Assembly (NCBI GenBank): GCA_948964755.1
Contig: CAREEU010000007.1
Location: 1-35,416 of the forward strand
DNA from: an uncultured Lachnospiraceae bacterium
GTDB lineage: Bacteria; Bacillota; Clostridia; Lachnospirales; Lachnospiraceae
Reading direction: 5' to 3'
Length of the DNA stretch: 35,416 bases
Made by a program: the position numbers and the translations under genes
The notes under the pieces: model-generated
What the model was told of the DNA's origin: nothing
The model's database searches: none
Seen by the model: only the letters and a program-made list of their open reading frames with translations
Shown: piece after piece, positions 6,993-31,981 of the stretch
Layout: each line of letters begins with the position of its first letter
Position numbering within the stretch: the first letter of the stretch is position 1

Positions 6993-8370
6993 AATCTACT
7001 TCTCCTTTTCTAAAAGTTTTTTCCCAAAATAAGCCTAAAAGCATACACGAAACCAAAGTCGAAAATGTATCCGCAACCGGCCCGGCCCATAAAATACCTT
7101 CAATCCCGAAGCAATCTCCAAGAAAAAGCATTGCCGGGATCATAAATACGATCTGCCGTGACATGGAGCAGGCTGCCGATAAAAACGGCCTGCCGATGGA
7201 CTGAAAAAATATCCCGGCGACAGAGGGCACAGGCTGGAGAAAACACGCCAGCAGGAAAATCCGGAATGACAGCACGGCAAATTCCATATATAACTCTGAT
7301 TCCTGGCCAAAAAGCCTGATAATGTTTTCCGGGAATATCTGGAATACCACCAATGCAATGCACATAATGAATATGCTTACTGCCATCGTTATACGAAATG
7401 TTTTTTTCACCCGGTCAAATTGACCGCTCCCATAATTATACCCAAGCAGCGGCTGGACACTGGTAGCAATTCCAAGAGCAACTCCAAACGCCAACTGACA
7501 GACTTTCATTGTAATGCCAAAGGTGGCCAGCGGTATATCCGAACCATACCTTGACTGTCTGCCATAGTTTACCAGCAGGTTATTCATAACGCCAATGACG
7601 AAAACCGCAGCTATCTGTGTGATAAAACTGGAAAAACCAAGCGTTATGATCTTACGGCTGATCCGTATATCTGGACACAGGAACTTTATTTTCAGTTTAA
7701 ATGTCTGAAACCGAAAAATGCAAAACACAAAGTATACCGTATTCAGGAACTGCCCGATGATCGTAGCCCAGGCCGCCCCCTGAACACCCCAATGGAATAC
7801 AAAAATAAATAAAGGATCAAGGATCATATTTGTAACACAGCCAATCAGCAGACCGACCATCGTCTCATTTGGCCTGCCATCCGCACGGATCATGCTGGCA
7901 AAAGAAATATTCACCGCAAAAAACGGGAAGCCAAGAACAATTATTTTCCCGTAATCCAGCGCATAAGGCATAATAGATTCCGTTGCCCCAAACAGGGAAG
8001 AAAGGGGACGGAGAAACACTTCAAAAAATATAAGAGATATAATCCCGGCAAATATCGTAAGTGAAATCATATTCCCTACGCTCCGGGCTGCCGCTTCCCT
8101 GTTTCCCTGCCCCAAATTCAAGCTCATAAACGCTGCAGCACCGTCTCCGATCAAAAGCCCGATAGCTAACATGATCGTTGTCAGCGGCATAATAACGTTT
8201 GTTGCCGCATTCCCAAGATACCCCACTCCCTGGCCGATAAAAATCTGATCAACCATGTTATAAAGAGAATTTACAACAAAAGAAATGATGCTGGGAATCG
8301 CATAACGAATCATCAGTTTTTCAATTTTTTCCGTCCCAAGCGGGTTCGTTATAGATGCTTCCTCAGACAT
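6979..8370 (-). CDS. MATE family multidrug efflux transporter
   Basis: 12-TM MATE architecture with the N-terminal motif LMIRYAIPSIISFVVNSLYNMVDQIFIGQ. Start is placed at ATG 8370 (MSEEAS), which has an AGGAAG RBS. The longer ORF to 8403 has none. The gene overlaps the downstream AKR gene by 14 bp. Confidence 0.75.
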   Translation of the reverse strand: MSEEASITNPLGTEKIEKLMIRYAIPSIISFVVNSLYNMVDQIFIGQGVGYLGNAATNVIMPLTTIMLAIGLLIGDGAAAFMSLNLGQGNREAAARSVGNMISLTIFAGIISLIFFEVFLRPLSSLFGATESIMPYALDYGKIIVLGFPFFAVNISFASMIRADGRPNETMVGLLIGCVTNMILDPLFIFVFHWGVQGAAWATIIGQFLNTVYFVFCIFRFQTFKLKIKFLCPDIRISRKIITLGFSSFITQIAAVFVIGVMNNLLVNYGRQSRYGSDIPLATFGITMKVCQLAFGVALGIATSVQPLLGYNYGSGQFDRVKKTFRITMAVSIFIMCIALVVFQIFPENIIRLFGQESELYMEFAVLSFRIFLLACFLQPVPSVAGIFFQSIGRPFLSAACSMSRQIVFMIPAMLFLGDCFGIEGILWAGPVADTFSTLVSCMLLGLFWEKTFRKGEVDYGTD

Positions 8371-8535
8371 TAAGCATTTTCTTCCTTTCTTTTCAAAACG
8401 CATTAAACTTTGGACATCTTACAAAAACTTCTTTCGTTTCATTTAATCCGTTTTTCATATCGTACTGTTTACGGACTATTTACTTATAATAAATCTGCAT
8501 AATGCACCGGAATCTGATTACTGACCTTCTCAATC

Positions 8536-8976
8536 TCAATGACTAAAAATTTTTTCACGAAAAATTTTGCCATATAGCCGGATGCTTTCGATCAGAATCG
8601 TGCGTTGCTCTTTAGAAAGAGCCTGCATAGCCTCATACTCGGCCTCTTTTATGTGCGGTGAAAAAGTATCCATATATTCCTGTCCTTTTTCTGTCAAATG
8701 GATTATTTTTGTTCTGCGATCTTCTGGTATTTCCCGCAATTCAATAAAGCCTTTTTTGTAAAATCCAGTAATAATTGTATTAACTGTTTGTTTAGGTAAA
8801 AAAGACATTTCACAAATGCTTTTTTGAGTACAGTTAGGAGTATGCGTTATATATCTCAAAATCTGGAGGCTGGTATAGGAAATCCCAATAGAACGCGCAA
8901 AGTCACTATACGTCATGGTAATGCTTTGCCATTCGTTTGAAAATTGCTCAACATCATTTTCAATTTCTTTCATCAT
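8536..8976 (-). CDS. MarR family transcriptional regulator
   Basis: The 146-aa protein has a winged HTH (SICEMSFLPKQTVNTIITGFYKKGFIEL...DRR). It is the first gene of the minus-strand MATE/oxidoreductase block, a classic MarR-efflux arrangement. Confidence 0.85.
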   Translation of the reverse strand: MMKEIENDVEQFSNEWQSITMTYSDFARSIGISYTSLQILRYITHTPNCTQKSICEMSFLPKQTVNTIITGFYKKGFIELREIPEDRRTKIIHLTEKGQEYMDTFSPHIKEAEYEAMQALSKEQRTILIESIRLYGKIFREKIFSH

Positions 8977-9241
8977 AAGAATTTATCCTTTCTTCATACA
9001 GTCCGAAATCAAGACTATATTATCACGTTCGCCATATCATGTCAAGTCTAAGGATATTACATATTTGTAAATTTTTATGCTGCTCCCGACCTGTCGCGCT
9101 AATTTTCTTAATGTTTGCAACAGTAAAAACAACAATTTCTTCAGAAAAAGCCTTGTCTTTCCACCGAAAATGTGTAAGCTGTCACTCACAAGGCAAGCAG
9201 CCAGTACAAAAACACAAACAAAACGAAAGGTGGAAAACATT

Positions 9242-9604
9242 ATGAAGACAGGAAAAATCACAGCAAAATTGAGGGACGCAGTTCCGGTATGCCTTATGGT
9301 AGAGGGACAGGAAGTAAAACGGTACAAGAACATTGGCCTGCCGGATATGCTCAAAGAAGTAGAAATGCTGGACTTCCATTTCAACGTACCGGAGGACGGC
9401 AAAATCACTTTTGAAATCAGCTATGCGCAGGGCGTACTGCCGGAGGTATTCCCGGAGCCGAGAACAAAAATGACACGGGCCAAGAAGGTCGTGGCCAAAG
9501 CGGCAGCGAAAGCCGCAGCAGAGCAGGAAGCCACGGCAGAAGAAAACGCTCCGGCGGCCATGCCGAAAGTATCATTTGAAGCAACAGAATTAAAGACGCA
9601 TTAA
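9242..9604 (+). CDS. Hypothetical protein with Ala/Lys-rich C-terminal tail
   Basis: ATG at 9242 is preceded by AAGGTGGA. The longer track ORF starting at 9077 has no RBS. The C-terminus (AKKVVAKAAAKAAAEQEATAEE) is low-complexity. No family was recognised. Confidence 0.45.
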   Translation: MKTGKITAKLRDAVPVCLMVEGQEVKRYKNIGLPDMLKEVEMLDFHFNVPEDGKITFEISYAQGVLPEVFPEPRTKMTRAKKVVAKAAAKAAAEQEATAEENAPAAMPKVSFEATELKTH

Positions 9605-9846
9605 AGATTTGGATACCAACGCAATAAATCTTCCCTCCCTTCCCCTTTCAATCTTTCTACAGCATATTTCAGCCACTCATCCGGTGTCGGAATTTCCCCG
9701 ATACATGGGATTTTTCTCCATTGCATCCGTTTCTCCGGGTCGGGGTCATTCCAGCCCCGCTCTATCCGTGCCGAAATAATCGCCCTCATTTCTTCAACTG
9801 TAATCCCACGTTCACGGGCAAAACGCTCAAAAATATGTTCTTCCAT
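9601..9846 (-). CDS. Small stand-alone Spo0A C-terminal (DNA-binding)-like domain protein
   Basis: ATG at 9846 (MEEHIF) has GAGGAGG 9 nt upstream. The sequence (EMRAIISARIERGWNDP...IPTPDEWLKYAVERL) parallels Spo0A_C (ERAIRHAIEVAW...KPTNSEFIAMIADKL). Confidence 0.4.
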   Translation of the reverse strand: MEEHIFERFARERGITVEEMRAIISARIERGWNDPDPEKRMQWRKIPCIGEIPTPDEWLKYAVERLKGEGREDLLRWYPNL

Positions 9847-10000
9847 AACTTTCTGCCTCCTCAGATATGAATATCTTCCCCAAATGGCTACCAAACTATA
9901 ATTCGGTATGTCCTTTTTGGGGGATTTCCTATCTACCAATCGTGACTATTATAGCACCCTTTTGGGAATTATAATAGTTACAGATTGGCAGGTGATAGAA

Positions 10001-10303
10001 ATGGATGTGCAGAAACGCATTAAGGAGTTGATGGAGGAAAGGGGCTGGACAGATTACCGCTTGGCAAAAGAGGCAAACCTCTCCCACTCCACGGTTACAA
10101 ATATGTTCAACAGAAATAATGCGCCAACGCTTCCTACTCTGGAATCGGTCTGCAGGGCATTTGGCATAACCTTGGTGCAGTTTTTTGCTGAAGGGGATGA
10201 ACCGATGCAAATGACCGATGAGCAGCGCATCCTGTTTTCCAGATGGAATCCGCTGACCGATGAACAGAAAAGACTTCTGCTCGACCTTATGAAAACAATG
10301 TAA
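10001..10303 (+). CDS. XRE-family helix-turn-helix transcriptional regulator
   Basis: ATG at 10001 is preceded by AGGTGA. The HTH is WTDYRLAKEANLSHSTVTNMFNR. It is transcribed divergently from the Spo0A_C-like gene. Confidence 0.75.
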   Translation: MDVQKRIKELMEERGWTDYRLAKEANLSHSTVTNMFNRNNAPTLPTLESVCRAFGITLVQFFAEGDEPMQMTDEQRILFSRWNPLTDEQKRLLLDLMKTM

Positions 10304-10350
10304 AATCCCGTTGATTCTATTTTTCAGAACCAACAGGATTTCTTTTTTAT
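10303..10350 (+). terminator. Rho-independent terminator after XRE gene
   Basis: An imperfect ~15-bp stem (AAATCCCGTTGATTC...GAACCAACAGGATTT) is followed by CTTTTTTAT. Confidence 0.5.
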
Positions 10351-10687
10351 GCCAATTTATACTTTTTGATTTTGCCTCTCAATAGAGGGTACAAAGCGAA
10401 ATCGGAAGGGTGCAACTATTCTTTGCCAACTTTGATATTTCACACATCCTCTAAAATCGAATAAAGGCATCTGTACACTTGACTGTACCGAAAGCCTTTA
10501 TTTCTGCCCTTTTTCTGATTTTCTGTGCAAGACGATTGTATCAAATAACGCAAATTCATATCTGTATGCAGGAGTTTTATGCTTTTTTGTTACGGCGGTA
10601 TTTGAATGTTTTATTAAGCTGGAATACATACCAATAGATAACAGTAAAGGTCTTTTATCCATTATCAAAAGTGATTTTCTAACAAGT

Positions 10688-11290
10688 ATGCGATTTATAG
10701 GCAAAGAACAGTCCTGTATTTTAAAAATGTTGCTTTTAAGCACATCGGTTAGTTTTTTTGTAATGGGAACAGCTATAGTAAGTCTGCCTTATATTGTGCG
10801 GAATGTACTGAGCTTAAATGCTGAATATTATGGTTTTGTAGAAAGTGCGTTGGGATTAGCTGCAATCATTGGGAGCATTGCAGCCGGACTATTAACAGAG
10901 AAAATGAAACCCGGAAAACTATCAATCGTAGTTGTTGTTCTTGGAGTATTTCTTTTTCCGGCGGGCATTATTTTTCTTCTTCCAACAACAGCAATTACAC
11001 GATACATTGTCAATATTATTTCGTTTTGTGGTATGCAGATTGCCGCTTGCATTTTTTCTATTTTTGCTCTCTCTATGATACAGCAAAGAACCCCTAACCA
11101 TTTAACGGGAAAAGTGATGGCATATATCGCTACTATTTCTATGTGTGCCCAACCGTTAGGGCAAATGGTTTACGGAATATTGTTTGATAAATTTAGCAAT
11201 GCCGTTTTTCTTGTATTACTCCCAACGGGAATATTTGTCTGCATGATAGGTTTACTTGCCGTAAACTTTTTTAAAAGTTTAGAAAATTAG
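10688..11290 (+). pseudogene. Truncated MFS transporter remnant (C-terminal six-helix half only)
   Basis: The 200-aa ORF has 6 TM helices and an MFS-like loop (LTEKMKPGKL) but no N-terminal half upstream. It sits in an AT-rich region that is atypical for the window. Confidence 0.45.
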
Positions 11291-11350
11291 AGGGATATTG
11301 GTATAGAATGATTTGAATGGGTACATTGCCCTGTTTACGGAAATAAAACA

Positions 11351-11398
11351 AGATTGCGAATACGGAAAGATACGAAAGTCAAATCGGATATTCGCAAT
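11351..11398. repeat. Hairpin (11-bp stem GATTGCGAATA/TATTCGCAATC, 26-nt loop) overlapping the 44-bp repeat core
   Basis: The stem pairs 11351-11361 with 11388-11398. It was read directly from the sequence. Confidence 0.6.
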
Positions 11399-11420
11399 CC
11401 GCTTCGCTACTTGCTCATAA
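11377..11420. repeat. 44-bp repeat core, copy A (inverted partner at 15512..15555)
   Basis: GTCAAATCGGATATTCGCAATCCGCTTCGCTACTTGCTCATAAC is the reverse complement of 15512..15555 at 41 of 44 positions. A related ~29-bp tail motif follows in direct orientation (11421-11449 vs 15556-15583). Confidence 0.8.
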
Positions 11421-11575
11421 CCTCATCAAGGAAGTCCCCGCTTCTAAGCCGCCAGACCATTGTGCCGAGGTTCGGCGGTTTCAACTATTTTATGCCCCAC
11501 TGCCTCTGCCCCTGCCAGCAAAAAGCACAGGAGGAACAGGCAAGATACAAAATATTACAAGCAGCAGAAAACAGC

Positions 11576-11815
11576 CAGAGTTGGGAAGCAATATCTTTCT
11601 GTTGTGACTTCGGAGGAAAGTTAGAAAATCTTAGGCTTCTGTCGATCTCTAGGATTTTTTGCCATTCTCGAATGGCAAAAAAAGGGGTGTGTTTAGCCCG
11701 TTGTACGGGCGAATTGCACCCCGGTCCGTCCGGTTGGATACAGGTAAATGCAGAAGCCTTAGATTTTCTTACTTTCCGTAGAGCGGAACAACAGAAAGAT
11801 ATTGCTTCCCAACTC
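11576..11815. repeat. 240-bp nested-palindrome element with a 28-bp perfect outer stem and multiple internal hairpins
   Basis: 11576-11603 is exactly complementary to 11788-11815. The inner stem 11614-11640 pairs with 11750-11776 (27 bp, 2 mismatches). A perfect 13-bp hairpin lies at 11654-11666/11669-11681. GGGGTG...CACCCC encloses GCCCG...CGGGC. The track's 154-aa ORF here is judged non-coding. Confidence 0.75.
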
Positions 11816-11902
11816 TAGCGTCCGTCTTGACACACCCCACTCTTTATTCCAGCCATAAAACATAAAACTTCCTCTCCGCTCCCCTCCCTTTCAACATGTC
11901 CC

Positions 11903-12841
11903 CTATTTCACCAGCAAATACCCAAAATAAACCAAATATCCAACTAACATCACTACTCCTCCAAACCGCTCCAGCCGCATTTTTCGAAATACACACACCC
12001 AAAGCAAAATCCCAGCCAATATAGCAACAACGCCATCCACCAAAAATTCCAAAGCAAACGGCACTGGTACAATCAAAGCCGTAGTCCCGACTACAAATAA
12101 AATATTAAAAATATTGCTCCCCACAATATTTCCAACTGCAATATCTGCCTTTCCCTTCCGTGCCGCAATCACCGAAGTAACCAATTCTGGAAGTGAAGTT
12201 CCAAAAGCCACAATCGTAAGCCCAATTAACCGCTCACTCATTCCAAAAATAGCTGCAAGCCGATTAGCCGCATCCACTGTCACATCACTCCCCACAATAA
12301 TCAGCACCATTCCAATCAAACCGGTAAGAAGCAGCTTCCCCATCCGCTCCTGTTTTTCTTCTTCTGACTCCTGCTCTGCCATTCCCTGCTTTGCAGCCTG
12401 AAACAAATATCCAAGATAGACAAGAAAAAATCCCCAAAGCAAAACCCCTTCCACACGGGTAATCATACCTCCGCTCATTCCGCAGACCAAAAGTACAGCC
12501 GAAACTCCAATCATAAAAGGCAGTTCAATCCGAATCGTAGATTTCTGCACCGCAATTGCTGTAATAACAGAAGTAATTCCAAGAATCACTAATACATTCA
12601 TAATATTGCTTCCTACCACATTTCCAATTGTAATTCCGGCATTTCCCTTCATAGCTGCGGTAATACTAACTGCCGCCTCCGGTGCACTTGTTCCCATCGC
12701 TACAATCGTAAGCCCAATTACTAACTGCGGAATTCCGAATTTCTCCGCAATTCCAGATACCCCGTCTACAAACCAGTCAGCCCCTTTAATTAACATTACA
12801 AATCCCAATACCAACAATCCCATCTGCAATAATACTTCCAT
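11903..12841 (-). CDS. CaCA family sodium/calcium exchanger (YrbG-like)
   Basis: Two alpha-repeat halves each carry GTSAPE/GTSLPE motifs. A strong AGGAGGAAG RBS is upstream. Confidence 0.85.
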   Translation of the reverse strand: MEVLLQMGLLVLGFVMLIKGADWFVDGVSGIAEKFGIPQLVIGLTIVAMGTSAPEAAVSITAAMKGNAGITIGNVVGSNIMNVLVILGITSVITAIAVQKSTIRIELPFMIGVSAVLLVCGMSGGMITRVEGVLLWGFFLVYLGYLFQAAKQGMAEQESEEEKQERMGKLLLTGLIGMVLIIVGSDVTVDAANRLAAIFGMSERLIGLTIVAFGTSLPELVTSVIAARKGKADIAVGNIVGSNIFNILFVVGTTALIVPVPFALEFLVDGVVAILAGILLWVCVFRKMRLERFGGVVMLVGYLVYFGYLLVK

Positions 12842-12931
12842 TTTTTCTTCCTCCTTTTTTCCTTTGAATTTTTACCAGATTTACTATTCCTATTTTGTGT
12901 TATGAAAGCAGCGATTATTCTGCAACCACAA

Positions 12932-12979
12932 AAAGGGACAAAACTTTTGCATATAATATGCCAAAAGTCTTGTCCCTTT
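12932..12979 (-). terminator. Long imperfect hairpin downstream of the MATE gene (possible terminator)
   Basis: AAAGGGACAAAACTTTTGCATAT-A-ATATGCCAAAAGTCTTGTCCCTTT forms a ~23-bp stem with one indel and one mismatch. Only a weak T-run follows on the minus strand. Confidence 0.3.
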
Positions 12980-13121
12980 CTATCTCTCAGAAAGTTGTAC
13001 AGCCACGATAACAAATCGGGGGATGTTGACTGTACAATGATAACTACTCCCTTTCAACTATCTTAAGTATACCTAATTTTTACAATATGTCAATCTTAAA
13101 ACTAAAAATTTTTTAATTTTA

Positions 13122-15511: not shown

Positions 15512-15555
15512 TTCAGTATAGGTTATGAGCAAGTAACAAAACGGATTGCGAATAT
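15512..15555. repeat. 44-bp repeat core, copy B (inverted relative to 11377..11420)
   Basis: See copy A. The three differences are all G/A transitions. Confidence 0.8.
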
Positions 15556-15564
15556 CCGATTTGA

Positions 15565-15604
15565 CCCTATCAAAGAAGTCCCCCTTCTAAGCCAGAAAGC
15601 AGCG
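15565..15604 (-). terminator. Putative terminator hairpin downstream of rnfB
   Basis: GAAGTCCCCC...GGGGGACTTC forms a 10-bp GC-rich stem with a 20-nt loop. TTTGATAGGG follows on the minus strand. It lies 74 nt after the rnfB stop. Confidence 0.4.
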
Positions 15605-20911: not shown

Positions 20912-21120
20912 TAACCCATTTTTTTCTTGAAAATATAGAAAAAAACACCAATAAATCCATAAAAATAAAATTTAACAGGATTTATAAGTGTTTAAAACTG
21001 CTAAAATTTTTATAAAATAAGTGCCAAAAAAGGAAAAATCTACAAATCCTGTTTGGTTAAATTTACTGTCTATTTTTTGTATATTTATTCCTATTGTATT
21101 TATAGCTATCCCGTACGCCT

Positions 21121-21252
21121 GTATCGAAGGAGGTTTCTTTGCTGGGGCCGTTTGCACTAAGGCTTCCTCGCAGCGGACACATAAGGCACGAAAATACCGT
21201 GCCTAAGTGCCGGCGGGAAGCAATACCCCTGCAAAGAAACCTCCTTCGATAC
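21121..21252. repeat. 132-bp hairpin-forming palindromic element, copy 1
   Basis: The 22-bp perfect terminal inverted repeat is GTATCGAAGGAGGTTTCTTTGC/GCAAAGAAACCTCCTTCGATAC. The inner stems are GCTTCC/GGAAGC and GGCACG/CGTGCC. The core is ~96% identical to the reverse complement of copy 2. Confidence 0.8.
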
Positions 21253-21342
21253 AAGCTGTCTGTTCCTTCCTATTCATTTTGCACCATCTCTGCTGTATAA
21301 AATTTATCCATATTTTCAACTAAACGATTCGCCTTAATATTC

Positions 21343-21392
21343 TTTTCTAATTTAAAACGTTTTTTTATTTTCTAATTTAAAACGTTTTTTTT
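21343..21392. repeat. Tandem direct repeat (2 x ~26 bp, TTTTCTAATTTAAAACGTTTTTTT)
   Basis: The repeat was read directly. It lies in the 251-bp segment between the two inverted palindromic elements. Confidence 0.7.
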
Positions 21393-29174: not shown

Positions 29175-30758
29175 TTAACCAAGAAGAGAAAGAACTCCTT
29201 GATTGCTCTGATTTGCTTGAGCTAACATAGATTGACCAGCTTGAGCCAAAATATTATTATTCGCATATCTTACCATTTCAGTAGCCATATCCGTATCACG
29301 AATTTGACTTTCAGCACTTGTCGTATTCTCCACTACATTATCTAAGTTATTAATTGTATGCTCTAAACGGTTTTGAACAGCACCAAGGGCAGCTCTTTGA
29401 TCAGAAACCTTATTCAATGCCGCTTTAATTGTTTCAATTGCATTTAATGCATTTGTATCATCTTCTCCATTTACCTTTAAACCAGTGACACCAATTGCCT
29501 TAGCACTCATAGACTTTATATCAAGAGAAATCTGATTATTGGTTGTAGCATCTGCACCTACATGAAGATTCAAAGTTAAAGCACCTACATCAAATTTATC
29601 TGTATAACTTAACAATCTATCCACGTCAGCCTGTGTTGCCAACTGACGGTCAGTTGCACCCTCTCCTGTCTTTAAATACAGTTCTGCATTAGGATCTAAC
29701 TTACCGTTGTTGTTAATATATTTATCTAAACCATTCGCAGCAATCTCATTACCATCCTTATCAATAAATTGAACTACGCCCTTACTTGTATAGTCAGAAT
29801 AAGCGACAGAATCTACAGCAAGTTTTACAGGAGCAAGCGTAGAATAATACTTCGATATATCTGCAGCAGTCGCACCAATATCTGTCCCTATCTCTTTCCT
29901 ATTTCCATCTGAATCATATACTTCTGTCTTCAGCTTATAATGTGCACCAGTATCAGTTATAGTATTACTAGCAATTGCAACTGCTTGGCTCTTTATATCA
30001 CCTGTTCCAGCACTAGAAGAATAATAAGTTATTGTTGAATCATATGCTTCCCCAGAAGCAACTTGATAATATTCATCTCCCACTTTCTTCAAATACTTAC
30101 CTGTACTATCCGTGAAAACTGCTTCCGAATTATTTAAGAAATTACCAGAATCACTAGATGCAATCGCTACTCCATAGGTTGCACCTGTACTGTCACTATA
30201 ATATACTTTTGTTGAATCAACTGCTGTTTTCAACGTCCCTTTCGATAAAGTCTTAACGGTATTATCTTCTACATAGTAAAGGTCTTGGCTAATCACATCT
30301 ACTTCTTTATATTGGAAATTTGTGTCTTTTGCAGCATTTACATCCCCTTTTAACAAATAAGTTTCATTAAACTTCGTTGTCTCCGATACACGATCGATTT
30401 CTGTTACCAACTGATCGATCTCAGCCTGAATCGCATCTCTATCAGAAGAAGAATTCGTTCCATTTGCTGCCTTTACTGCCAATTCATTCATTCTCTGAAG
30501 CATATCCTGTACTTCTGTCAATGCACCTTCTGCTGTCTGTACGGCACTGATTCCGTCCTGTGCATTAGAAGAAGCCTGTGTCAGTCCTCGGATCTGCTTT
30601 CTCATTTTTTCGGAAATTGCCAAACCTGCTGCATCGTCTGCTGCACGATTGATCTTATAACCAGATGATAATTTTTCTGTGGATTTTGCCTGAGCCTTGG
30701 TTGTGATACCTAGCATACGATTAGAATTCATTGCTGTAAGATTGTGTTGTACTACCAT
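29175..30758 (-). CDS. fliC: Flagellin
   Basis: Conserved N-terminal ([24 protein letters not shown]) and C-terminal ([24 protein letters not shown]) flagellin domains flank a ~250-aa Ser/Thr/Tyr/Asp-rich variable region. AAGGAGG RBS is upstream. Confidence 0.9.
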
Positions 30759-31390: not shown

Positions 31391-31981
31391 ATGAGCACAA
31401 CACAGCCTATTAAAAGCAAAGATGCACTGAACCAATTTAAAAATTATTATTTGCTGCAAAAACCTCAGCCAAGAAACTATACCCTGATTATATTGGGACT
31501 AAATACAGCACTGCGAATCTCCGATATTCTCACATTAAAATGGAACGATATCTATGATGACCATACTAAAACCATGAAAAAACATTTAGAAGTAATAGAA
31601 CAAAAGACTGGAAAATCCCGCACGATTGCATTAAACCGCTCTATCTGCACCACCCTAAAAAACTACCTCTCGTATTCCTTCCAGGAAAAACCCTATGAAA
31701 AAGAGCAGTATCTCTTCTTAAGTCAGAAAGGAAAGAATGAGCCAATCAGTCGTTCTCAAGCCTACCGAATTATCTGTACTGCTGCCAAAGCATCTGGACT
31801 GGATCAACATATCAGCTGCCACTCTCTAAGGAAGACATTCGGTTATCATGCGTGGAAACAGGGAACCCCTCCAGCCCTTTTAATGGATCTTTACAATCAC
31901 TCCTCCTACAGCATTACCAAGCGATATTTAAGTATTGAACAAGACGAAAGAGATGAAGTGTATTTAAAAATTACACTCTAA
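31391..31981 (+). CDS. Minimal tyrosine recombinase (phage-integrase catalytic domain only, FimB/FimE-sized)
   Basis: The 196-aa protein has the catalytic residues in order: R (NTALRISD), K (TGKSRTIAL), HxxR (HSLRKTF), H/W (GYHAW) and Y (TKRYL). GGAGGA RBS is upstream. There is no N-terminal core-binding/SAM-like domain. Confidence 0.8.
   Translation: MSTTQPIKSKDALNQFKNYYLLQKPQPRNYTLIILGLNTALRISDILTLKWNDIYDDHTKTMKKHLEVIEQKTGKSRTIALNRSICTTLKNYLSYSFQEKPYEKEQYLFLSQKGKNEPISRSQAYRIICTAAKASGLDQHISCHSLRKTFGYHAWKQGTPPALLMDLYNHSSYSITKRYLSIEQDERDEVYLKITL

Follow-up and report, generated by a model that had tools for sequence, protein, structure and literature searches.

A giant nested hairpin between convergent genes of a gut Lachnospiraceae bacterium is probably a divergent, AYGGAY-less copy of the TwoAYGGAY RNA

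The stretch of DNA analyzed here (the window) comprises 35,416 nucleotides of contig CAREEU010000007.1 (GenBank assembly GCA_948964755.1), from an uncultured Lachnospiraceae bacterium, and carries at 11574-11819 (window coordinates throughout) an element built of nested inverted repeats. The element occupies part of a 612-bp intergenic gap between two gene stops, that of an MFS transporter gene (11290) and that of a Na+/Ca2+ exchanger gene (11903): the left neighbor encodes only a 200-amino-acid C-terminal fragment of the transporter (10688-11290, + strand), and the right neighbor is the convergent exchanger (Na_Ca_ex) gene (11903-12841, - strand). We consider it on balance probable that this gut Lachnospiraceae bacterium carries here a structured non-coding RNA (ncRNA) element of the TwoAYGGAY type, read from the + strand and belonging to an AYGGAY-less subfamily. 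The kind is already catalogued (Rfam RF01731), and this copy would be a divergent variant of it.

A first-pass annotation, made from the letters of the window alone, had described nested palindromes at this place, and this description was confirmed. The outer inverted repeat (11574-11605/11788-11819) is 32 nt long and 97% complementary, with one mismatch, and includes a perfect 28/28-bp part (11578-11605/11788-11815); the apical hairpin (11655-11667/11670-11682) is paired at 13/13 positions. Both perfect stems were thus described correctly, and the inner repeat (11615-11641/11751-11777, 27 nt) is 93% complementary, with two U.U mismatches. The fold is non-random on either strand: the + strand RNA reaches -141.4 kcal/mol, against -73.0 +/- 5.3 for shuffled sequences (z = -13.0, 0 of 200 shuffles), and the - strand -134.7 kcal/mol (z = -14.1). 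We model it as a rod of ~60 bp, consisting of an outer helix P0 (~32 bp, variable), an internal loop and an inner helix P1 (27 bp, with the two U.U mismatches one helical turn apart); atop the rod the model places a three-way junction, whose hairpin 1 varies and whose hairpin 2 forms, together with the junction, a nearly invariant block. The parts, all on the + strand, are as follows.

11560-11573 (+): purine-rich conserved 5' flank, ending in ACAG; kept among copies in alignments A1/A4
11574-11605 (+): 5' arm of P0, the outer closing helix (28-bp perfect part from 11578); 32 Watson-Crick pairs here
11603-11614 (+): P0/P1 internal loop, 5' strand, GUGACUUCGGAG; 92% identity among copies
11615-11641 (+): 5' arm of P1, the inner long helix; inverted repeat, 7/25 pairs covary
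11642-11654 (+): 5' internal loop and 5' strand of P2 (UAGGA, 11650-11654); aligned to RF01731 positions 34-48
11655-11682 (+): hairpin 1, loop UCUC; 13/13 inverted repeat, stem covaries, loop varies between copies
11683-11738 (+): hairpin 2 with its UUUA/GAAU internal loop, and the junction GG-UCCG-UCCGG; a nearly invariant 56-nt block
11739-11750 (+): 3' asymmetric internal loop; 60% identity, alignments A4/A5
11751-11777 (+): 3' arm of P1; inverted repeat, covariation
11778-11790 (+): P0/P1 internal loop, 3' strand, CGUAGAGCGGAAC; conserved among copies
11788-11819 (+): 3' arm of P0; inverted repeat
11820-11825 (+): 3' flank GUCCGU; conserved, with GCGUCC after P0 in 4/5 distinct copies

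Several of these parts carry recognizable detail. The U.U mismatches of P1 fall in two UUA/UUA sites 10 bp apart, one of them within CUUAG, and in the P0/P1 internal loop UGAC opposite GGAA could form tandem sheared G.A pairs, to judge from its letters; tandem GAs have been reported for the TwoAYGGAY family (PMC4333381). Hairpin 2 ends in the apical loop GUUGUAC, positions 11680-11732 are invariant across six sequences, and the CGAAU, GG and CGUC of the hairpin-2/junction block are conserved RF01731 positions; UUGGAU (11733-11738), just 5' of the asymmetric loop, is a partly conserved YGGAU. As a separate observation, the 3' flank ACACACCCCAC (11830-11845) is complementary over 16 nt (81%) to the 5' side of hairpin 2 (11677-11692), which would allow an alternative pairing; L085B has it in part, and the remaining copies lack it (L numbers denote the other loci and contigs examined). 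Within the window, the variable P0 arm found no target beyond a 12-mer.

A 154-amino-acid open reading frame (ORF) on the + strand (11354-11818) covers the element, and its dismissal as an artefact in the first-pass annotation stands: it has no Pfam match, and its frame is not kept in other copies, where 1-nt indels break it (A1/A4), no comparable ORF lies over the L085 and L088 elements and no gene is called over the second copy in L104 (L104_E2). A conserved small ORF within the invariant block was likewise rejected, the frame being broken by an A6/A7 length difference.

Copies of the element were sought by scanning metagenome contigs with a pattern for the conserved junction, which gave 16 loci, and then by BLAST and nhmmer, which added copies in L085, L087, L088, L092 and L094; five distinct diverged copies were found in all. 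The closest species representative, L001, whose exchanger protein is 85% identical, has a partial copy. Ten strain contigs, found through the exact exchanger protein sequence and drawn from different samples and assemblers (ENA, metagenome-assembled genomes (MAGs) at NCBI, Logan), have the palindrome in identical or nearly identical form and at the same site, with disruption by an insertion sequence (IS) in two. Since no fewer than 10 assemblies, produced independently and by different assemblers, contain it, the palindrome is not an assembly chimera, as had been feared. No further copies were found in ~830 kb from 79 other Lachnospiraceae genomes, either by nhmmer or with R1, a covariance model built here from this subfamily (weak nhmmer matches in L076, L032 and L019 proved to be coding sequence). 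Phages, plasmids and E. coli genomes yielded no BLAST match to the element, an Rfam-consensus string, a gut seed sequence or a Psychromonas copy, and pattern scans of viral contigs gave none for this subfamily or for the CUUAG signature; those scans did yield one canonical copy, L100, adjoining the end of a Mu-like prophage.

The sequences of these copies carry the main evidence. Counted on four distinct full-length copies, standard pairs fill 97.1% of cells and 25 of the 88 pairs show double-sided changes, against 3-8 double-sided pairs and 42-48% pairing in slid controls (partner moved by 1-3 columns); 0 of 500 shuffles reached the observed values. In the variable part of P0 15 of 34 pairs have changed on both sides and are still paired. 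Mean pairwise identity there is 38%, rising to 83% in P1, 92% in the P0/P1 internal loop and 95% in hairpin 2 and the junction. Per copy, P0 holds 29-35 Watson-Crick pairs with 0-2 G.U and an occasional mismatch. The partial copy in L001 has a different, compensated hairpin-1 stem, and its hairpin 2 shows one compensatory change (U-A to C-G) and tolerates an insertion of ~70 nt in the apical loop. G.U occupies ~26 cells on the + strand, several of them invariant, and A.C, the equivalent of G.U on the - strand, 2-3; because the former is frequent and the latter rare, the + strand is taken as the functional one.

Closer relatives fit the same picture. Compared with L104, a 98% identical strain, the element of the window differs by a single single-nucleotide polymorphism (SNP) in 254 nt, and the flanks are 1.9% diverged; the SNP (A to G) lies in the 3' arm of the outer stem, where it turns a U-A pair into U.G on the + strand. 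P0 accordingly drifts no faster than the background, constrained to stay paired, and 28/28 is the state of this strain. In this reading purifying selection acts on the pairing and so maintains the complementarity of the stem, whose letters otherwise change at a neutral rate. Hypermutation of P0 or copying from arm to arm was considered and rejected, as one SNP between strains is the background rate and other copies hold G.U pairs and mismatches; so was a variable stem derived from a palindromic insertion target, as the conserved base of P0 (CYAGAGU/ACUCURG) lies outside its variable part and near-identical gut copies have the outer stem in common.

Because diverged stems stay paired through double changes, G.U pairs favor the + strand and the core is 95% identical, the pattern is the one expected of old paralogs whose RNA fold is under selection and not that of a young DNA palindrome resembling a miniature inverted-repeat transposable element (MITE). 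We regard it as very likely that the element is a selected, structured RNA element. The first-pass annotation had taken the perfection of the stems as a sign of a recent palindrome at the DNA level, a view contradicted by the U.G in the L104 stem and by the other copies, which have 1-2 G.U pairs and a P0 that is paired at 38% identity. Its further suggestions of a hairpin telomere or a replication origin find no support either: the element is chromosome-internal, is not terminal on contigs of up to 132 kb, and is passed without any switch in GC skew, the cumulative skew being monotonic across 11-12 kb.

A mobile DNA element nevertheless has to be weighed, that is, a non-autonomous element (MITE, REPIN, ERIC or Correia-like) whose hairpin would be a by-product of its inverted repeats or a single-stranded DNA (ssDNA) fold recognized by a transposase acting in trans. 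The element is indeed multi-copy, with a pair 3 kb apart in L104 and further pairs in L085 and L088; the family has at least five copies in Psychromonas ingrahamii and, in the gut, three that are nearly identical but differ in their flanks; related species (L001 and L104) carry copies at different positions; and assemblies often break within the element (L109-L112). The copies here are old, however, with unalignable flanks and P0 at 38%, yet they are paired by double substitutions and keep a core at 95%, from which neutral decay of a MITE differs; near-identical, neutrally decaying copies are not the pattern in this subfamily, of which about 1 Mb of related DNA gave no additional copy, although canonical gut members do show near-identical copies. 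No target-site duplication (direct repeat) was seen at the L104 pair, no transposase is consistently a neighbor, and the ten strains, a small sample, show IS disruptions and no presence/absence polymorphism; the G.U asymmetry, moreover, favors an RNA read from one strand. We therefore consider a mobile element unlikely, and of the mobile-repeat type put forward in the first-pass annotation we retain the dispersed multi-copy family and discard the young MITE-like palindrome.

The RNA family to which the element can be assigned is TwoAYGGAY. Rfam model RF01731 matches 11608-11784, on the + strand only, at 68.8 bits (E = 3.6e-11; gathering score 43 bits) and over the full model (positions 1-168 of 168). 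A match to a known ncRNA is what the first-pass annotation had named as speaking against its palindrome reading. The match was obtained by scanning 11000-12200 (1.2 kb) under lax Rfam filters. Scans of the whole 35-kb window in both gathering and E-value modes gave 0 matches, on account of the filters, as did a scan of 6.8 kb containing three homologous copies (L085, L088); the Rfam filters hide the match in scans above about a kilobase. The match spans all helices and junctions and not the stem alone: the alignment runs from the long closing helix through an asymmetric internal loop (with a 5' strand of 9 nt and a 3' strand of about 22 nt) and the short P2 (UAGGA/UCCG) to an apex of hairpin 1, 1-2 linker nucleotides, hairpin 2, GG, the 3' strand of P2 and CGUC. 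A three-way junction, with two hairpins on a short P2 and with the GG and CGUC nucleotides, is accordingly present in the model alignment. At E<=10 and under lax filters, RF01731 did not match the other long-stem hairpins of the window (21117-21256 and its inverted twin); since this pair goes unmatched, the score is not a generic response to palindromes.

Resemblance to the gut seed sequences of the family (e.g., BABG01023967) extends partly outside the Rfam model. Like the element, these have an outermost near-perfect stem of ~36 bp, with ACAG 5' of the outer stem and GUCCGU or GUCCGG 3' of it. Both also have CUUAG in each arm of the inner helix, which produces a U.U mismatch, and a junction of the form CGAAU-GG. 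TwoAYGGAY was named for its two AYGGAY terminal loops and described from Clostridia and gamma-proteobacteria and above all from the human gut; its closing stem is "often very large," according to the supplement, and in the main-text table the motif is classed as a probable RNA without a cis-regulatory role (Weinberg, 2010, PMC2864571). The long stem, the trait that drew attention to this locus, is therefore a published hallmark of the family, and the Lachnospiraceae context of the element, with no fixed gene association, agrees with the range of TwoAYGGAY (Clostridiales, human gut). True homology of the element to TwoAYGGAY seems likely to us. We speak of an AYGGAY-less variant, and not of an ordinary member, because both loops have lost the motif and sequence-only profiles give no link to canonical members.

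A number of results weigh against this reading. Canonical members carry AUGGAU or ACGGAU in their terminal loops; neither loop of the element (UCUC, GUUGUAC) has AYGGAY, nor has any loop of the five copies. An nhmmer profile from three gut seed sequences did not find the element in the window, and in the reverse direction R1 gives the canonical L100 copy only 9.9 bits (46.4 bits by RF01731). With its filters off R1 scores unrelated long palindromes at ~27 bits (E ~3e-7) with the whole core deleted, so that E-values of long-stem covariance models are inflated. The covariation is counted on four full-length copies, and only five distinct copies are available. On the + strand neither a sigma-70-like promoter nor a classical terminator is evident at the element. 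Finally, an IS4/IS5-type IS (DUF4096, DDE_Tnp_1 transposase) sits inside the element in L108 (~7089-7224) and L112 (~3805) and, independently, in L087 (539-2135), with one insertion following GAAAAUCUAAG within the inner stem; the element is therefore dispensable in some strains.

What surrounds the copies varies. The neighbors are an MFS and a Na_Ca_ex gene at one locus and, at others, methyltransferase and MCP genes, a HAD hydrolase gene, or TetR and rhamnosidase genes, and the orientation of the element relative to its neighbors varies as well; no gene, reverse transcriptase or transposase recurs consistently near the copies in the loci examined. The lack of a fixed neighbor fits the earlier judgment that the RNA is not cis-regulatory (PMC2864571). 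In L104 the order is exchanger, element 1 (-), full-length MFS (-), TetR (-), a second, diverged element 3 kb from the first (+) and rhamnosidase (+); there (7552-10545) the MFS gene is complete, at 491 amino acids, and is followed by the TetR gene, the second copy and the rhamnosidase gene. Homology of the window to L104 ends at ~10561, beyond which the window has an Xre-type HTH gene and ORFs that match no family; the window strain has lost everything beyond about 10561. Two-copy loci (L085 1945-2621, L088 1-1615, L104 7009-10545) share one arrangement in 3/3 cases, a - strand copy on the left and a + strand copy on the right, with their 5' ends facing. Between the paired copies lie a 130-nt AT-rich spacer (L085), a HAD hydrolase gene (L088) or the TetR-MFS pair (L104).

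The position between convergent genes, seen here and in L085, raises the possibility of a mere bidirectional terminator or 3'-end stabilizer. The antisense of the 5' flank (11560-11573) reads CUGU followed by a U-rich tract, and CUGU with a U-rich tract follows the hairpin on the antisense strand in most copies; at this locus the antisense carries CUGUUUUCU after the giant hairpin, a stem too large for the terminator scanner to score. The + strand has no U-tract, and the copies in L001, L104_E2 and L085A lie upstream of genes or between divergent units. A terminator would also leave the 95% conserved three-way-junction core unexplained, and we judge it very improbable that the element is nothing else.

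Two further alternatives would give the RNA a specific partner. The first is a small RNA that titrates CsrA through two GGA loops. The host is flagellated, with a flagellin gene at 29175-30758, and CsrA regulates flagellin in Firmicutes. GGA does occur in conserved single-stranded stretches of the element (CGGAGGA, 11611-11617; UAGGA, 11650-11654; UUGGAU, 11733-11738), and a CsrA sponge has been put forward as a hypothesis for the family (PMC4333381). Terminal loops with GGA, however, are found in 0/5 copies, the triplet being confined to internal-loop strands; the loop of hairpin 1 is not conserved, and UUGGAU is lost in L104_E2 and L001. A CsrA sponge thus has, in our estimate, only the faintest prospect of being right.

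The second is a role beside a reverse transcriptase (retron-like or DRT-like), as its RNA partner or template, with a solo copy such as this one being served in trans. The long duplex that closes a structured core recalls the a1/a2 stem of retron RNAs. Among the scanned ORFs of the 35-kb window none encodes an RVT-family protein (the remaining ORFs of the rnf operon were identified via strain gene tables), and no reverse transcriptase lies in the loci around other copies or adjoins the canonical L100 copy. A lead comes from a bioRxiv preprint (10.64898/2026.09.22.753630, 24 Sep 2026), which we use in the form of word counts and as a lead only: it names TwoAYGGAY 52 times, including in its abstract, and its counted terms include 'reverse transcriptase' (14), 'cDNA' (24), 'phage' (11), 'ssDNA' (5), 'retron' (2), 'transposase' (1) and 'recombinase', 'nuclease' and 'CsrA' (0 each), any of which may belong to other parts of the preprint. 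An association with reverse transcriptases was not noted for the family in 2010 (PMC2864571). Taken together, we hold a partnership with a reverse transcriptase to be decidedly unlikely for this element.

For the AYGGAY-less TwoAYGGAY RNA that we favor, a tentative mechanism can be sketched, which as a whole we regard as possible rather than probable. The element, which is presumably transcribed, would act as a stand-alone RNA, independent of any particular neighboring gene; our best guess is a protein-binding RNA. The hairpin-2/junction block, probably together with the mismatch-marked face of P1, would be where a trans-encoded partner, most probably a protein, docks. The long duplex of P0 and P1 would join the two ends, protect the RNA and perhaps offer a site for double-strand-specific processing by RNase III. 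On the other strand, the antisense giant hairpin with CUGUUUUCU may stop transcripts leaving the exchanger gene. As a long shot, the AYGGAY-less lineage might have kept the rod, the U.U-marked P1 and the junction and swapped its partner, the invariant hairpin 2 now serving another trans-acting protein, possibly a reverse transcriptase or other nucleic-acid enzyme, and the copies may in addition work as pairs: those that bracket gene cassettes (TetR-MFS, a HAD hydrolase) could serve as insulators at the RNA level or mark the ends of a hitherto undescribed type of cassette.

Since its description in 2010 TwoAYGGAY has remained an orphan RNA family, and the present lineage keeps its scaffold under selection without the AYGGAY loops. 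This loss argues against CsrA titration via the loops, the only published idea, as a universal role of the family; the conserved functional surface would rather be the hairpin-2/junction block and the mismatch-marked helix. If the family does prove to be tied to reverse transcription, solo copies would be test cases for action in trans. The head-to-head arrangement common to the 3/3 two-copy loci, around a cassette or a short spacer, is a further point of interest. The element also illustrates a blind spot of annotation, as default Rfam scans are empty here and public MAG gene callers place the 154-amino-acid protein over it.

Other features of the window and of the related contigs were recorded along the way. 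Next to the element lies a repeat that the first-pass annotation had listed as copy A of a 44-bp repeat; it is present, as a 46-nt module that occurs twice, inverted and 4.1 kb apart (11378-11423 and 15520-15565), each followed by ATCAARGAAGUCCCC.CUUCUAAGCC in direct orientation. The module is also found in L085 (3492-3541), L038 (three copies) and L049 and weakly resembles part of Clostridiales-1 RNA (RF01699; 18 bits, gathering 48); it represents a short repeat family of its own, distinct from the element. Two inverted elements of ~140 nt (21135-21274/21482-21621, 86% complementary), each with a hairpin of 31-bp stem, precede the rnf operon, with a 25-nt tandem repeat (21340-21389) between them; they match no Rfam family at E<=10. 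The 11-mer GGGAAGCAATA, proposed as a link between these hairpins and the element, does recur at 21215, as a single independent coincidence that is not meaningful; neither Rfam at E<=10 nor R1 relates the two.

The leader of the exchanger gene (12842-13121, - strand; L001 340-575; L104 5749-6000) is conserved with its gene at 79% between species and has a TTGACA...TATACT promoter and a GGGACAA...UUGUCCC hairpin with a U-run; it looks like a riboswitch or attenuator, and no known riboswitch was matched in Rfam at E<=0.01. A gene for a Phage_integrase-family recombinase (196 amino acids, 31391-31981) lies within 43-nt inverted repeats (31315-31357/32108-32150) and adjoins the flagellin gene and DUF3880 glycosyltransferase genes, making it a candidate invertible phase-variation switch. 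An unrelated viral contig, L101, carries a type II hammerhead ribozyme (1799-1867, 48.6 bits).

Set against known systems, the element comes closest to TwoAYGGAY (RF01731), with which it shares a score above gathering, the very long closing stem, the asymmetric loop, the short P2 carrying two hairpins and the GG-P2'-CGUC junction, as well as ACAG, GUCCGU, CUUAG with its U.U mismatch and CGAAU in common with the gut seeds, and a multi-copy occurrence in Clostridiales and the human gut with no fixed neighbor gene. It differs in that both AYGGAY loops are absent and that hairpin 2 has an extra lower stem, the most conserved part, and it is missed by sequence-only profiles and default Rfam filters, with a weak reciprocal covariance-model score.

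MITE-like repeats (REPIN, ERIC, Correia/NEMIS) are likewise dispersed intergenic long hairpins, often between convergent genes and at assembly breaks, whereas copies of the element are old and kept by compensatory change, have an apical domain conserved across phyla, and come with neither visible target-site duplications nor an identified cognate transposase. With retron msr-msd RNAs and other ncRNAs associated with reverse transcriptases the element shares a duplex of both RNA ends around a structured core, but no reverse transcriptase gene adjoins any examined copy and the element has no separate msd-type hairpin. The CsrB/RsmZ sponges, finally, resemble it as a proposed stand-alone protein-binding RNA, and canonical TwoAYGGAY has two identical GGA loops, whereas the apical loops of this element do not contain GGA.

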